A stretch of DNA of 64,000 bases from Candidatus Gottesmanbacteria bacterium (GCA_023245335.1 JAHFKK010000001.1:936019-1000018), one strand, 5' to 3'. Positions 14,811 through 62,997 are shown, numbered from the stretch's first letter. Notes: generated by a model not told the origin, from the letters alone. Translations and numbers: made by a program.

Positions 14811-15758
14811 GTGAGTAAAAAACGCATTAACGCATATCTTCTCCTCCTTCTGGTCTCCGTCATATGGGGAGCCGCAAGCCCGATCGTCAAGTATGCACTC
14901 ACCTGGTTCCATCCCGTCATATTCCTCACATACCGATTTTTTCTTAGCTCCATTATCGCGCTTATCATTTTCGGCGCAGAGCCCGCTACATTCCCCAAAA
15001 AAGCGAGAGACAAATCACTTGCGTTTCTGACTATGATGCTCTCGACGCCGATCGCGTTGGGGCTTTTCTTCCTTGGATTATCCAAAACGTCTGCACTCTC
15101 CGGAAGCCTTATAACCGCAGGCGCCCCCATCCTCCTGGTTGCGGCGGGGGCACTTTTTCTCCACGAGCGAGTCTCAAATACGGAAAAAGTCGGAATAGTC
15201 ATAACAATTATCGGGACGTTCATGATCGCAATCGGCCCCCTGGTCTTTAACAACACGGCGAATCATTTCGGTACGCTGGAAGGAAATCTCATCATGGTGC
15301 TGGCAACAATTGCCGACCTATCGGCGACCCTATTCACCAAAATATGCATGGATCGGGGTATATCGTTGCGGCTTCTCGCACACGGACAATTTGTCCTGGG
15401 GCTTATTATCTTCCTCCCGATCCTTCTTCTCCGGCATCCTATCGTATCCATAGCAGCAACCGTCGTTGACGCTCCCTGGTCTGCACATGCGGCCGTGTGG
15501 TTTATGGCGCTGATCTCGGGATCGCTTGCCTATACTCTCCGTGACCATGGACTCCGATGGGTTGAGGTGTCGGAAGCGGCAATTTTCACCTACCTGCAGC
15601 CAATCTGGGCAGCCATCCTTTCCATTCTTTGGCTCGGTGAGCCGATTACTACGTCATATATAATTGGCGGCGGCATACTCACCCTCGGCGTCTGTATCTC
15701 CGAATACCGGGGAAAGCGGGTTCCAGCCGTGGTCCACCGTCGACACAAGCGTAAATAG
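14811..15758 (+). CDS. EamA/DMT-family transporter
   Basis: 10 predicted TM helices in two EamA-like repeats. Confidence 0.8.
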
Positions 15759-15777
15759 ATGCTATAATAGCCTTCTT

Positions 15778-16080
15778 ATGAAATCCGGCATCCACCCCAA
15801 ATGGTATCCAAACGCCGTCGTTTCGTGTGCCTGCGGCAACACGTTTACGGTCGGGTCCACCAAGGATAAAATTCAGGTTGATATCTGCAGCCATTGTCAT
15901 CCGTTCTATACCGGTGAGATGAAATTTGTCGATGCCATGGGTCGTGTCGAACGATTCCAGACCAAACAAAAACAGGCAGCGACCAGCGGCTATGTCTCCA
16001 AAAAGAAGAAAAAGCAGCTTCGATCCGCGTCCGACCAAACGCCGAAATCCCTCAAGGAAATGCTCATGGGCTTGAAGTAG
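15778..16080 (+). CDS. rpmE: 50S ribosomal protein L31 (zinc-binding type) with Lys-rich C-terminal extension
   Basis: [46 protein letters not shown] is canonical L31. The ORF track start at 15664 was trimmed; TATAAT lies at 15762. Confidence 0.85.
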
Positions 16081-16109
16081 CTCGTTCTTTATTTTTCCAT
16101 ACATAGAGT

Positions 16110-16808
16110 ATGAATACTGATATCGCCATCATGGAATTCCGTGCGGGTCCCGGCGGAGATGAAGCGCGGATCTGGTCGCAGGACCTCATGCGCATGTACT
16201 CACGATATGCGGTCATTCTCGGATGGAAAGTCGAACAGCTCGACGAGGGCGTCATACGCATCCGTGGGACCGATGTATTTACCAAACTCCAGTACGAGGC
16301 CGGTACACACCGCGTCCAGCGTACCCCGACTACAGAACGCCACGGGCGTATACATACCTCAACCGCGACGATCGCGGTACTTCCCGATGTCCCGGAAAAT
16401 GAAATATACATCCGTCCGGAGGACATAGAGTGGGATTTCTATAGAAGCGGCGGCAAAGGCGGCCAAAATGTGAATAAAGTAAGTTCGGCCGTCCGCATAC
16501 GCCATAAGCCGACCGGCATCGTCGTCCAATGCCAGACGGAACGGGATCAATACCAAAACCGCCAAGTCGCGCTCGGCATGCTGAGGGCAAAGCTCTGGGA
16601 GCAACAGCTCCTCGATCGGGAAAAGTCCGTGAGTGAACAGCGAAGCGTCATCGGCCGGGGCATGCGCGCGGAAAAGATCCGCACCTACAACTTCCCCCAG
16701 AACCGCGTCACCGATCACCGGATCAACAAAAGCTGGCACAACCTTGAGGACATCATGAACGGCAAAATGCAAAAAATTACGGAAGCGATGATTTCTATGC
16801 AAACCTAA
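16110..16808 (+). CDS. prfA: Peptide chain release factor 1 lacking N-terminal domain 1
   Basis: PxT-type codon recognition segment RVQRTPTTERHGRIHTS, GGQ motif SGGKGGQNVNK, RF1-type C-terminus RTYNFPQNRVTDHRI. Only 232 aa; it begins where E. coli RF1 is at about residue 110. Confidence 0.8.
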   Translation: MNTDIAIMEFRAGPGGDEARIWSQDLMRMYSRYAVILGWKVEQLDEGVIRIRGTDVFTKLQYEAGTHRVQRTPTTERHGRIHTSTATIAVLPDVPENEIYIRPEDIEWDFYRSGGKGGQNVNKVSSAVRIRHKPTGIVVQCQTERDQYQNRQVALGMLRAKLWEQQLLDREKSVSEQRSVIGRGMRAEKIRTYNFPQNRVTDHRINKSWHNLEDIMNGKMQKITEAMISMQT

Positions 16809-16853: not shown

Positions 16854-17270
16854 TTATTTCTTTTTTTTCGGATAAAATTCCGGATTCTGCTTCTCAAATT
16901 CAGCATCGATATCATCAAGGTCTTGCAGTCTCCGAACCTCAGGAATTCTTCGCTGAAGTATACCCTTCGCAAGGCGCTCAAGTTTACTCGATACGTGCTG
17001 AACTCGCGCACCTGCATCAGGATCAGTCAAACTGAATGCGCCGCCGTTATTACCGTGGACTTTCTTAAACCCCTTATGAAAACTGTCACTCTCGTCTTCT
17101 ATCCCCTTTCTTAGCCTTGGCTCGACGGGCGCAAGCGGAGGTTGTCCTTTTCTATTGCGTTGATGCGCCAGTGTCATTGCGTCAGATACCGCAGCTAAAT
17201 TGTGCTTCTCCTTCCCGTAGTTGGCTAAATCTATAGGCAAAATCTCTGAGTAATCAGCATCGGTTGACAT
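16854..17270 (-). CDS. Hypothetical acidic protein
   Basis: Only long ORF in the gap between prfA and htrA; no recognisable motif. Confidence 0.3.
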   Translation of the reverse strand: MSTDADYSEILPIDLANYGKEKHNLAAVSDAMTLAHQRNRKGQPPLAPVEPRLRKGIEDESDSFHKGFKKVHGNNGGAFSLTDPDAGARVQHVSSKLERLAKGILQRRIPEVRRLQDLDDIDAEFEKQNPEFYPKKKK

Positions 17271-23206: not shown

Positions 23207-24082
23207 GTGGACAAGTTGGACAAGGTCATAGAGGATATCACTTCCCTGAAAATCCAGGGAGCGACGAACGTCGCACTCGCGGTCCTCGACTATATAGAAG
23301 AAGCGATCACCACAAACCCCAATCACTCCCCGCCTGACATAGAGTACCTGGGGACCAGACTCGCCTACGCAAGACCCACCGAGCCGCTCGCACAAAATGC
23401 GATCCGGTATATTTTTTCCGATACGTCCGCATCCCTCGTTTCCAGAATCACGCACTACCGGACATTCATCCAGGAAGGCAAACGGTCCATCCCGGCAAAC
23501 GGCAAACCGCTTCTCGTAGACGGCGGATCGTATCTCACGCTCTGCCACTCGTCGACCACCGTATCGCTTTTCCGCGAGGCACGGGCGGGCGGCGCGATGT
23601 TTAGCATGTACGTCGCGGAAACGCGGCCTCTTTATCAGGGCAGGATCACCGCCAATGAACTCATCCGCTTGGGGTTTGATGACATCACCATGATCATCGA
23701 TGACGTCGCGGTCTCCTTACTTGAAGGCCGCAAAGGCAAAATCGATGCGGTATTTATCGGCGCGGATCTCCTAGCCGATACCGGGTTTGTGAATAAAGTC
23801 GGAAGTCTCGCCGTGACGGCAGCTGCGCATCGCAACCACATCCCCGTGTATTCGTTATCGACATTACTGAAATTTGACCCGCGGCCATACACCCCGGCAG
23901 TCATCGAAAAGCGGGACTCCCATGAGATATGGGACGACGCGCCTAAAGAACTGCAATTTTACGCGCCTGCGTTTGACTACGTGCCGTATTTTCCGAACGT
24001 CCACATCGTCTGTGAGGCTGGCATCATTCCGGGCAAGAAAGTAAAGTCAGCCGCAGTAAAACAATATCCGTTCCTGGCATAA
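23207..24082 (+). CDS. eIF-2B alpha/beta/delta-like ribose-1,5-bisphosphate isomerase (e2b2 family)
   Basis: N-terminal IQGATNVALAVL and central Rossmann-like blocks of the eIF2B/MtnA family; immediately upstream of RuBisCO. Confidence 0.75.
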   Translation: MDKLDKVIEDITSLKIQGATNVALAVLDYIEEAITTNPNHSPPDIEYLGTRLAYARPTEPLAQNAIRYIFSDTSASLVSRITHYRTFIQEGKRSIPANGKPLLVDGGSYLTLCHSSTTVSLFREARAGGAMFSMYVAETRPLYQGRITANELIRLGFDDITMIIDDVAVSLLEGRKGKIDAVFIGADLLADTGFVNKVGSLAVTAAAHRNHIPVYSLSTLLKFDPRPYTPAVIEKRDSHEIWDDAPKELQFYAPAFDYVPYFPNVHIVCEAGIIPGKKVKSAAVKQYPFLA

Positions 24083-24089
24083 TAAACCT

Positions 24090-25328
24090 ATGGCTAATCC
24101 CTATCAGCACTACTTATCGCTCCATGAATCGGTCGATCCCACGAAGCACATCATCGCGACATTTGCGCTCTCGGTAACCGGTGAGCCGTTTGACCAGACC
24201 GCAGGGGGTGTCGCTGCGGAATCATCGGTCGGTACGTGGACGGATGTCGGGCTTGAGGACAAAAAAATCTGGGATATGCTGCACGCGAAAGTGACCGACG
24301 CGGATGAAAAGACGGGCACGATCACGATCGCCTATCCCCTTGACCTTTTTGAACCCGGCAGTATCCCGCAGCTTCTCTCATCTATTGCAGGCAACGTCTT
24401 CGGGCTCAAGGAAATATCACGTCTGCGGCTTCTCGACCTCGCGTTTCCGGAAGTCTACGTCAAAAGCTTCCCCGGCCCGGCGCTCGGCGTAGACGGCATC
24501 CGCAACCTCACGGGTGTCCGTGACCAACCGATCCTGGGGTCCATCATCAAACCCAAACTGGGACTCTCAAGCGCCGACCACGCCAAAGCCGCGATGGAAG
24601 TTTTTGATGAAGGCATACACCTCGTCAAGGACGACGAAAACCTGACCAGCATGTCGTTCAACAACTTTTACACCCGCGTGGATGAAGTGACGGACCGCAT
24701 GAATGAGAAGCATTATCTGGAAATCGGCAAGGCAAAAGTATACGCGTTTAATATCACGGCAAGTTACGAAGAAATGATGAAACGGGCAAACTACGTCCGG
24801 GACAAAGGCGCTAATTGTCTCATGATGGATGTCCTGACCGCAGGATTCAGCGGGGTCGCCGGCATACGAAATAGGAACTACGGCCTCATGATCCACGGAC
24901 ACCGCGCCATGCACGCGGCATTTACCCGGTCCCAAGAATACGGCGTCACCATGATGGTCATCGCCAAACTCGCGAGGCTCACTGGCGTCGACTCGTTTCA
25001 CACCGGCACCGTCGTCGGCAAAATGCAGGGCGGCAAGGATGAAGTGGTCAAGATCAACAATTTCCTCCGCTCGGATTGGTATGGCCTTAAGCCGGTACTG
25101 CCGACCGCTTCCGGCGGACTCCACCCCGGACACATTCCGGACCTTATGCACATCCTCGGCAACGATATGCTCCTCAACTTCGGCGGAGGCATCCACGGGC
25201 ATCCCGACGGCACACCCGCAGGCGCAAGGGCCGTGGTCCAGGCGACCTATGCAACACTATTAGGCGTTCCCCTCGCCCAAGCGAAAGAAAGCAAAGAACT
25301 CCAACGCGCACTCGAAAAGTGGCAATAA
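24090..25328 (+). CDS. Ribulose-1,5-bisphosphate carboxylase/oxygenase large subunit, form II/III (CPR/archaeal type)
   Basis: Active-site blocks GSIIKPKLGLS (carbamylated Lys), GIHLVKDDENL and GGGIHGHPDG; about 410 aa as for form III-like enzymes. Confidence 0.85.
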   Translation: MANPYQHYLSLHESVDPTKHIIATFALSVTGEPFDQTAGGVAAESSVGTWTDVGLEDKKIWDMLHAKVTDADEKTGTITIAYPLDLFEPGSIPQLLSSIAGNVFGLKEISRLRLLDLAFPEVYVKSFPGPALGVDGIRNLTGVRDQPILGSIIKPKLGLSSADHAKAAMEVFDEGIHLVKDDENLTSMSFNNFYTRVDEVTDRMNEKHYLEIGKAKVYAFNITASYEEMMKRANYVRDKGANCLMMDVLTAGFSGVAGIRNRNYGLMIHGHRAMHAAFTRSQEYGVTMMVIAKLARLTGVDSFHTGTVVGKMQGGKDEVVKINNFLRSDWYGLKPVLPTASGGLHPGHIPDLMHILGNDMLLNFGGGIHGHPDGTPAGARAVVQATYATLLGVPLAQAKESKELQRALEKWQ

Positions 25329-61862: not shown

Positions 61863-62426
61863 TTATACCTGGAGGAGTTCCGCTTCTTTTTTCTCTCCCA
61901 TAGTGTCGATTTCTGCTATCATCTCATCGGTCAGCTCCTGGACCCTTTTTTCACCCAATGCCTTTTCGTCTTCCGATACGGTCCCTTCGCTCTCCATTTT
62001 CGTAAGTTCCTTCATCGATTCGTGCCGCACCTGCCGCACCATGATACGGCCGCCTTCTAATTTGGTTTTAGCGAGCTTGATGTATTCCTGACGGCGTTCT
62101 TCAGAAAGCGGCGGCAGAGAAATACGTATGATTTCGCCGTCGATGACCGGTGTGAGTCCTACATTAGCCGCTTCCAACCCTCGCTGGATTTCGGTAATAA
62201 TAGAAGGATCGTATGGCGAGATGACGATCATTTTCGCTTCCATTGTCGTGATCGTCGCAAGTTCCATCATTTTGAGATACTGTGTACCGCCGTAAACTGC
62301 GATAACGATATTTTCTACAAGCGCGGGGGTAGCTCTGCCGGAACGGATGGATGCAAGGTCCGCATGCGTGACGTCTATCGCTTTCTTCATCCGCTCGCGC
62401 GTAGCATTAATGACCGGGTCTATCAT
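61863..62426 (-). CDS. frr: Ribosome recycling factor
   Basis: Full-length match (MIDPVINATRERMKKAIDVTHADLASIRSGRATPALVE...). Confidence 0.9.
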   Translation of the reverse strand: MIDPVINATRERMKKAIDVTHADLASIRSGRATPALVENIVIAVYGGTQYLKMMELATITTMEAKMIVISPYDPSIITEIQRGLEAANVGLTPVIDGEIIRISLPPLSEERRQEYIKLAKTKLEGGRIMVRQVRHESMKELTKMESEGTVSEDEKALGEKRVQELTDEMIAEIDTMGEKKEAELLQV

Positions 62427-62538: not shown

Positions 62539-62997
62539 TTATTCTCCCAGTTGCATGCGGGTAAATTTGGCGACGGTGATGTTCTCGCCGAGTTTGGCGA
62601 CCGTGAGCTTAATAAAGTCTGAAATTGCCACTTTCGGATCCCGGATATACGGACTTTTGAGAAGTTCCGCGACGTTTTTCGGATTCATCGACGCAACCTG
62701 GAGCGTGAGCTCATGAGCAAGCGCTTTAAATTCATCTGTTCTTGCGACAAAATCCGTTTCGCACCGCAGTTCTACCAATACCCCGACTTTGCCGTCTTGA
62801 TGGACATAGGAACTCACGATACCCTGTGAGGTTTCTTTGCCTTCTTTTTTGGATGCCTTTTCCAAACCGCGTTCGACGATAAGCTTCTTCGCTTTCGCGT
62901 AATCGCCTTTGGCGTCCTCAAGAGCCACCCGGCAATCCGCAATACCTGCGAGTGTTTCCTGACGAAGTTTTTTGAGAAGATCTATAGAAATATCCAT
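62539..62997 (-). CDS. tsf: Elongation factor Ts (short form)
   Basis: UBA-like N-terminus LLKKLRQETLAGIADCRVALEDAKGDYAKAKKLI plus a single core domain; 152 aa. Confidence 0.85.
   Translation of the reverse strand: MDISIDLLKKLRQETLAGIADCRVALEDAKGDYAKAKKLIVERGLEKASKKEGKETSQGIVSSYVHQDGKVGVLVELRCETDFVARTDEFKALAHELTLQVASMNPKNVAELLKSPYIRDPKVAISDFIKLTVAKLGENITVAKFTRMQLGE

Follow-up and report, generated by a model that had tools for sequence, protein, structure and literature searches.

The role of domain 1 in bacterial class I release factors such as RF1 has been debated for about twenty years: it has been taken for an RF3 docking site, for a recruitment handle of the L7/L12 stalk, or for a late accessory. 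Most of what is known comes from truncations engineered in E. coli. We describe here a prfA gene in which evolution appears to have made the same deletion. The gene encodes an RF1 of 232 amino acids (aa), hereafter the short RF1, and lies in a stretch of 64,000 nucleotides from a Candidatus Gottesmanbacteria bacterium (GCA_023245335.1 JAHFKK010000001.1:936019-1000018). We call this whole stretch the window.

Domain 1 of E. coli RF1 is a flexible, independently folding helical bundle that promotes the exchange of nucleotide on RF3; small genomes lack prfC (PMC1586002). In cryo-electron microscopy (cryo-EM), the C-terminal domain of bL12 bridges RF1 domain I to uL11, no direct contact between RF1 and RF3 is seen in the states described, and the anticodon stem-loop of the P-site tRNA is touched by two residues of domain 2/4, Glu155 and His156 (Graf et al. 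2018, PMC6076264). When ribosomes are depleted of bL12, their binding of RF1 weakens about 20-fold, from an apparent affinity of 9 nM to 210 nM (PMC6076264).

One of the closest described proteins is a laboratory construct, the N-terminally truncated E. coli RF1 of Mora, Zavialov, Ehrenberg and Buckingham (2003), which has the same domain-1-less architecture. As that work is summarised in PMC1586002 and PMC6076264, domain 1 leaves codon specificity unaffected and is not needed for release in vitro, the truncated protein works in vivo (PMC1586002), and RF3 is able to recycle RF1 without domain I (PMC6076264). The Gottesmanbacteria form differs from this construct in being natural, fixed and selected lineage-wide, and trimmed further. 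PrfH (RF-H; TIGR03072) is also natural and domain-1-less, with about 200-230 aa and a GGQ motif, but it has a divergent recognition loop and an RtcB-like partner gene and is accessory, whereas the short RF1 has a PxT motif and rpmE as its neighbour. The stop-codon-independent rescue factors ArfB, ICT1 and C12orf65 have the GGQ domain in common with the short RF1. They have no domains 2/4 and carry a basic C-terminal tail, whereas domains 2/4 are complete in the short RF1. The known natural release factors without domain 1 are accessory factors and the known truncated RF1 is a laboratory construct; a natural housekeeping form would be new. Literature searches returned no description of a natural domain-1-less RF1 in the candidate phyla radiation (CPR) or elsewhere, and there was no mention of one in the passages searched of a survey of release factor evolution (Burroughs and Aravind 2019, PMC6514570) or of a study of small CPR ribosomes (Tsurumaki 2022, PMC9297842).

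An RF1 of domains 2, 3 and 4

The prfA open reading frame (ORF; Table 1) starts with ATG and ends with TAA. In Pfam, the PCRF family (PF03462) matched the short RF1 with profile positions 102-194 of 194 only, at aa 6-88, and the RF-1 domain (PF00472) was complete (aa 96-204, profile 2-116 of 116, E = 5.7e-39). The best NCBIfam match was to the RF1 model NF001859 (317.5 bits; alignment starting at position 106 of the 347 in the model), and TIGR00019 (RF1) scored 310.5 bits; the RF1 models aligned from about model position 106-114. RF1 structures in the PDB matched with E values of about 1e-64 to 1e-74, among them T. maritima RF1 at residues 85-321 (E = 2e-74) and E. coli RF1 at residues 111-345. 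The short RF1 thus has the first strand of domain 2 at its N-terminus, at about residue 106-111 in E. coli numbering. Over 223-226 residues its domains 2-4 were 45-55% identical to those of canonical RF1 (TIGR00019/NF001859; E. coli, T. thermophilus, and T. maritima 1RQ0), from which it differs by the absence of domain 1 (about 105 aa), of 11 hairpin residues and of about 10 C-terminal residues.

We considered other release factor families and rejected them. RF2 (prfB) was rejected from a score of 209.4 bits, below the TIGR00020 cut-off of 370, and from the motif PTT in the place of SP(F/Y). PrfH was rejected from a TIGR03072 score of 72.5 bits (cut-off 166.65), with the GGQ domain alone aligned and no rtcB-like gene adjacent. 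ArfB was rejected from an NF006718 score of 53 bits (cut-off 100) and from the completeness of domains 2/4.

An AlphaFold2 model built from a 54-sequence alignment had a mean predicted local distance difference test (pLDDT) score of 83.3. It was used instead of a model from 31 close homologues, which was poorer (pLDDT 65, domain 4 unresolved). In a Foldseek search of the PDB, the best matches were RF1 in T. thermophilus and E. coli termination complexes, with query-normalised template-modelling (TM) scores of 0.86-0.92 and root-mean-square deviations (rmsd) of 2.4-3.0 Å. They included ribosome-bound T. thermophilus RF1 in 9mtq/9mtr (E = 2.5e-25, TM score 0.92, rmsd 2.4 Å). Closed crystal forms of free RF1 fitted the whole model less well (TM score 0.57-0.58). 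The match to ribosome-bound RF1 indicates that the 232 residues are a complete release factor of domains 2, 3 and 4.

The elements used by canonical RF1 were kept: GGDE, PxT, GRIHTS, GGQ and the switch-loop/EKIRTYNFPQ segment. In GGDE, G15, G16 and E18 were invariant in 31 short homologues and in the 54-sequence alignment of RF1 and RF2. Among the 31 short homologues P73 and T75 of the tripeptide were invariant, and so were Q70 and the block R186-xEKIRTYNFPQNRVTDHR of the switch loop and domain 4. The decoding and catalytic roles of these residues are known from established RF1-ribosome structures; from these structures we take the GGDE helix tip to be the element that recognises the first-base U, and HTS to be the one for the second and third bases of the stop codon. 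The GGQNVNK context of the short RF1 resembles the ICT1-type sequence.

Two further reductions were found beyond the loss of domain 1. The beta2-beta3 hairpin of domain 2 was shortened, and the deleted segment contains the equivalents of E. coli Glu155 and His156 (with A6 aligned to E. coli A111). The C-terminal tail was about 10 residues shorter. By alignment, the short RF1 appears to have shed three peripheral contacts (to the stalk, to the P-site tRNA, and by the C-terminal tail) with the decoding and catalytic core kept.

The missing domain was not found nearby. Ahead of prfA an in-frame TAG is separated from the ATG by a single codon, so the frame cannot be extended upstream. A hidden Markov model (HMM) of domain 1, made from 61 full-length RF1s, had no match in the window translated in all six frames; its best hit, within dnaB, had E = 0.41. 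It likewise matched nothing next to prfA in 17 related loci (labelled L with a number) and, in 398 kb of related loci, nothing except half-domain RF1s and RF2 N-terminal domains. The half-domains of L018 and L019 and the N-terminal domains of RF2 served as positive controls and were detected. A split gene, with domain 1 encoded elsewhere as a separate small protein that joins the short RF1 in trans, would suit the flexibility and independent folding of the domain (PMC1586002), and the window is a small part of the genome. We nevertheless regard it as very improbable: apart from the half-domain RF1s and RF2 N-terminal domains the HMM was negative throughout, and in the intermediates described below half of domain 1, or a stub of 20 aa, is still fused at the N-terminus, which points to erosion and not fission. 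The 138-aa ORF on the opposite strand behind prfA was also tried as a displaced domain 1 and rejected (no Pfam match; domain-1 HMM E = 27).

The architecture had been proposed in a sequence-only reading, which described a prfA of only 232 aa, aligned from about residue 110 of canonical RF1, with RTPTTE and GGQ retained and with no coding room for domain 1 upstream. This structural part stood. The ORF was confirmed in place, the E. coli match started at residue 111, the two motifs were found at aa 71-76 and aa 117-119, the Pfam profiles showed the RF-1 domain whole and PCRF from position 102 only, and the upstream TAG and the six-frame search left no room for domain 1. The gap to rpmE had been given as 30 bp and is 29 bp. 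The alternative raised in the same reading, a mis-assembly, did not survive the comparisons that follow.

Conservation of the short form and stepwise loss of domain 1

Three independent contigs, among them one of 340 kb from ENA and one of 1.22 Mb from NCBI, encode an identical protein. More than 120 protein clusters of 224-256 aa were 78-100% identical to it, on contigs of up to 1.23 Mb. When GTDB was scanned with one genome for each species, 17 species had a 77-87% identical gene, most of them under the label Candidatus Gottesmanbacteria. The Gottesmanbacteria-type protein at the rpmE-prfA position has 224-238 aa. In the 15 of these loci that were examined, an in-frame stop lay 4-17 codons upstream of the short prfA and the N-terminus read MN(T/S/Q)D(I/V)A(I/L)(M/L)EFR. 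Relative to L017, RF1 was 77% identical and the flanking genes were 42-83% identical.

The ratio of nonsynonymous to synonymous substitution (dN/dS, Nei-Gojobori) was 0.021 (L011/L012), 0.025 (L005/L009) and 0.015 (L004/L006) in the three unsaturated pairs. In other pairs the proportion of nonsynonymous differences was 0.09-0.17 against a saturated synonymous proportion of 0.69-0.89. The short RF1 is under strong purifying selection and its form is fixed across the clade.

In one relative (L020, 8808-9490 of CAYSAP010000003.1) the short RF1 is frameshifted near codon 101, by a sequencing error or because it is a pseudogene. This case would suit an origin of the short gene in general from faulty assembly or sequencing, from a miscalled start or from pseudogene decay. 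Such an artefact is effectively refuted by the identical protein on three independent contigs, the same architecture in 17 species and more than 120 clusters, the in-frame stops upstream in the 15 loci and in the window, the low dN/dS and the confidently predicted fold. Relatives with a full-length prfA at the same site would have spoken for an error. The short gene was found throughout the 17 species representatives, and only more distant lineages have a longer prfA there, with half of domain 1 (303 aa in the rpmE-prfA pair of L019). This half-domain RF1 at the syntenic site points to progressive loss and not to an artefact.

The steps of this loss could be followed in an exhaustive HMMER search of 1.84 billion representatives clustered at 50% identity, whose members are labelled P with a number. 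The query fell in one short cluster (P0121, 235 aa, 73% identity). After it came a handful of reduced forms and then ordinary RF1s of 345-368 aa at about 50% identity. By the portion of the PCRF profile (194 positions) that they match, the forms can be arranged from P0165 of Dojkabacteria/WS6, also CPR (367 aa, 4-194), through L019 (303 aa, 38-194) and L018 (325 aa, 43-194), to P0124 of Candidatus Amesbacteria (256 aa, with an N-terminal stub of about 20 aa, 95-194), the putative ORF P0127 (232 aa, 97-194) and the RF1 of the window (232 aa, 102-194). Relatives with half of domain 1 have RF1s of 303-331 aa. The N-termini of about 70 aa in L018, L019, P0123 and P0126 aligned only to the second half of the domain-1 HMM (about 52-102), indicating that the first helices were lost first. 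The hairpin deletion was common to all these reduced Microgenomates forms and was absent from P0128 (269 aa) and P0152 (242 aa), putative ORFs placed elsewhere in the tree.

In a neighbour-joining tree of domains 2-4 (about 230 columns), the Gottesmanbacteria group had 100/100 bootstrap support and the Amesbacteria P0124 paired with the half-domain L018 (100/100). Deeper nodes were weak, with 58% for the whole reduced clade. Since Amesbacteria group with L018 and Gottesmanbacteria stand apart, complete or near-complete loss would have occurred at least twice. Two members of the search, P0122 (477 aa) and P0125 (481 aa), have an internal tandem duplication of RF1 domains 2-3 and are probably assembly artefacts.

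Domain 1 in RF2 and the role of the short RF1

The stop codons of 49 long ORFs in the window were TAA (21), TGA (18) and TAG (10); TAG also closes rpmE. This usage calls for the functions of RF1 and RF2 alike. The sequence read around prfA consisted of the window and about 14 kb of flanks, from a genome of 1.2 Mb. Neither prfB, prfC nor prmC was among its Pfam-annotated genes. A tblastn search of the window with the short RF1 found only itself and no release factor paralogue, and none lay within 10 kb of the short RF1 in the 17 loci.

Three RF2 genes were met by chance in the GTDB scan. One of these loci, L022, is from Daviesbacteria, where RF2s have 346-381 aa (mostly 354-366), and a search with its RF2 gave Daviesbacteria only. 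JGI metagenomes scanned with an RF2 alignment gave 80 loci with 78 complete genes of Microgenomates type. All 78 encoded 289-365 aa with 57-132 N-terminal residues, and 77 of them had at least 330 aa, with 99-132 residues ahead of the GxGGxEA motif. A G+C-rich subgroup (45-51%; window 50%) carried GGKGGQNVNKVS, with the same unusual Lys as in the Gottesmanbacteria RF1. In a search from one member of this subgroup (L062), all 120 clusters had 311-352 aa, nearly all of them exactly 336, and several were named 'peptide chain release factor 2 [Candidatus Gottesmanbacteria bacterium]'. The 336-aa RF2 has about 104 aa ahead of domain 2 and matches Pfam PCRF from profile position 64-73 at residue 62-73; it therefore has a real, if shortened, domain 1. 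The RF2s of Gottesmanbacteria (336 aa) and Daviesbacteria (354-366 aa) are class I factors paralogous to the short RF1. They share the domain-3 signature GGKGGQNVNKVS with it but have SPF instead of PxT and retain the N-terminal domain. By the evidence of taxon names, the shared GGKGGQ signature and similar G+C, the lineage would have removed domain 1 from RF1 only.

Some features of these RF2 genes were observed in passing. In two Gottesmanbacteria loci (L107, GCA_016194575.1; L108, GCA_016218255.1) the cluster ruvC-zip-prfB-(150-aa ORF)-ftsE-ftsX is kept, and prfB occupies one frame and lacks a programmed +1 frameshift site. One Microgenomates sublineage (JGI loci L032, L034, L036, L037, L040, L041, L043, L045 and L052) has LSPYNAD instead of QSPFNAD in RF2, a known SP(F/Y) alternative.

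The retained domain 1 of RF2 bears on why RF1 lost its own. The sequence-only reading had linked the loss to that of RF3, which would leave an RF3-interaction domain useless. Domain 1 does stimulate nucleotide exchange on RF3, prfC is absent from small genomes (PMC1586002), and no prfC was among the annotated genes of the window or its flanks. This explanation is possible but weakened, and we consider it rather unlikely; it is not sufficient. Domain 1 is kept in the RF2s that carry the name of this candidate phylum, so loss of RF3 is not enough by itself to render the domain dispensable. Outside the CPR, bacteria without RF3, such as mycoplasmas, retain full-length RF1. RF3 can also recycle RF1 that lacks domain I, and cryo-EM shows no contact between the two factors (PMC6076264).

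Taken together, the 232-aa protein is most likely the orthologous housekeeping RF1, naturally minimised, of a Candidatus Gottesmanbacteria-type genome (Microgenomates, Patescibacteria/CPR). Several points weigh against this reading. The scores of the short RF1 fell below the equivalog cut-offs (NF001859, 400 bits; TIGR00019, 423.25 bits), because about 105 model positions, a third, are missing at the N-terminus. The sequence read is 64 kb with its flanks out of 1.2 Mb. Among the loci compared, no assembly accession was common to the short RF1 and the 336-aa RF2, and the link between the two is made by taxon names, signature and G+C, not by a shared assembly. What would follow for the kinetics, with weaker binding and faster spontaneous release, is something we infer; the architecture, its conservation, the retained motifs, the intermediates and domain 1 in the RF2s named for the clade were observed directly.

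The sub-threshold score and the extent of the sequence read would also suit an accessory RF1 paralogue whose function is specialised or in rescue, as with PrfH or ArfB, beside an ordinary full-length RF1 encoded elsewhere in the genome; the natural domain-1-less homologues found so far, PrfH and ArfB/ICT1, are indeed accessory (PMC1586002). Such a paralogue is improbable from its position, sequence and history. The gene occupies the rpmE-prfA position that holds a longer RF1 in L019, and its closest relatives are half-domain RF1s of sister lineages, as orthology predicts. The RF1 model is far ahead of PrfH and ArfB (317 bits against 72.5 and 53), the codon-recognition domain is full with PxT, and rtcB is not adjacent. 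A dN/dS of about 0.02 on decoding motifs is unexpected in a redundant copy, and the 17 loci gave no second release factor within 10 kb.

As an orthologous housekeeping RF1, the short protein would bind directly in the A site, lacking the assistance that the bL12 C-terminal domain and uL11 give to domain 1. It would recognise the stop codon via GGDE, PTT and HTS, and its GGQ loop would swing into the peptidyl-transferase centre, where the peptide would be released. With the three peripheral contacts to ribosome and tRNA gone, binding would probably be weaker and the factor would probably dissociate spontaneously. If the factor leaves unaided, there would be less need for assisted recycling. A slow-growing cell whose genome has 1.2 Mb may tolerate a cost in recruitment speed for RF1, but evidently not for RF2. 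The chances are about even that the short RF1 is the sole RF1 and terminates at UAA and UAG without bL12/uL11 or contact with the P-tRNA anticodon stem, and probably without RF3, while RF2 needs domain 1. By analogy, this asymmetry would mirror E. coli, where N-terminally truncated RF1 is active both in vitro and in vivo and domain 1 matters more for RF2.

The rpmE-prfA locus and a natural experiment on domain 1

Coordinates of the features discussed are listed in Table 1. The neighbours of prfA in the window are rpmE, the 138-aa ORF and htrA. The order hisS-eamA-rpmE-prfA is kept in relatives, followed by htrA and ctpB on the opposite strand, and rpmE also lies upstream of prfA in L017, L019, L110, L112 and L113. 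The two genes are probably co-transcribed. The candidate promoter ahead of them is a match to a consensus pattern only, with 2 sites found against 1.8 expected. A 7-bp hairpin over the rpmE stop is followed by TCTTTATTTT. This hairpin and T-run were considered as a weak terminator or attenuator between rpmE and prfA and rejected, as 5 such sites were found against 2.0 +/- 1.5 expected, which is indistinguishable from chance.

Table 1. Coordinates of the prfA gene, its elements and other features in the window.
Feature	Position	Strand	Basis or remark
prfA, RF1 of domains 2, 3 and 4 only	16110..16808	+	ORF, Pfam, NCBIfam, PDB, AlphaFold2/Foldseek
G15-G16-D17-E18, N-terminal tip of helix alpha5	16152..16163	+	aligned to E. 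coli G120-E123
11-residue deletion, beta2-beta3 hairpin of domain 2	16242..16247	+	alignments; E. coli 150-151 and 155-162
P73-T74-T75, PxT tripeptide anticodon	16326..16334	+	aligned to E. coli P188-A189-T190
H82-T83-S84 in GRIHTS	16353..16361	+	invariant; aligned to E. coli H197-T198-S199
G117-G118-Q119, catalytic GGQ in domain 3	16458..16466	+	invariant; context GGKGGQNVNK
In-frame TAG ahead of prfA	16104-16106	+	reads TAG-AGT-ATG
rpmE-prfA spacer	16081..16109	+	29 bp; sequence read; too short for domain 1
rpmE, bL31 (100 aa) with 37-aa C-terminal extension	15778..16080	+	Pfam L31 on aa 1-63
Candidate sigma-70-like promoter ahead of rpmE-prfA	15740..15768	+	TCGACA, 17-nt spacer, TG-TATAAT; 11/12 matches
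Hairpin over rpmE stop and T-run	16066-16095	+	rejected as terminator/attenuator
138-aa ORF	16854-17270	-	no Pfam match
IF-2B-family isomerase and RuBisCO large subunit	23207-25328	+	adjoining genes
frr, RRF	61863-62426	-	187 aa
EF-Ts	~62539-62997	-	152 aa

The 138-aa ORF converges on prfA and is also present in the contigs with an identical RF1. In L110 and L112 htrA directly follows prfA, and a different 113-aa ORF takes that place in L113. The C-terminal extension of bL31 is Lys-rich and kept in relatives (99-121 aa); the treatment of small CPR ribosomes by Tsurumaki 2022 (PMC9297842), in the passages searched, has bL31 among the ribosomal proteins enlarged in CPR. Farther away in the window, EF-Ts is about half the E. 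coli length, with rpsB upstream, and is another trimmed translation factor, and RRF looks ordinary. An IF-2B-family isomerase adjoins the large subunit of RuBisCO, a pair typical of the CPR/archaeal nucleotide-salvage (AMP) pathway.

Proteins of this family are annotated at NCBI as 'PCRF domain-containing protein' or 'peptide chain release factor-like protein' and at JGI as 'peptide chain release factor 1'. Generic labels make Gottesmanbacteria and Amesbacteria genomes seem to lack prfA and can distort marker-gene and completeness analyses.

The finding is not shocking, domain 1 being already dispensable in the laboratory, and it is still a clean natural experiment on a long-debated domain. 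In place of engineered truncations, the deletion here was made by evolution in an ultra-small groundwater lineage, Candidatus Gottesmanbacteria, in which it is conserved, with graded intermediates in sister lineages and with the RF2 named for the phylum intact. These genomes offer a comparative system for the contribution of domain 1 to RF1 as against RF2, for the minimum size of a stop-codon-specific release factor, and for whether loss of domain 1 accompanies loss of prfC or changes in uL11, bL12 or H43/H44. If the reading is true, the short RF1 would be a natural minimal class I release factor, reached independently at least twice in Microgenomates, and RF1 and RF2 would differ in their need for domain 1, an asymmetry that may be coupled to changes in the GTPase-associated centre of CPR ribosomes.

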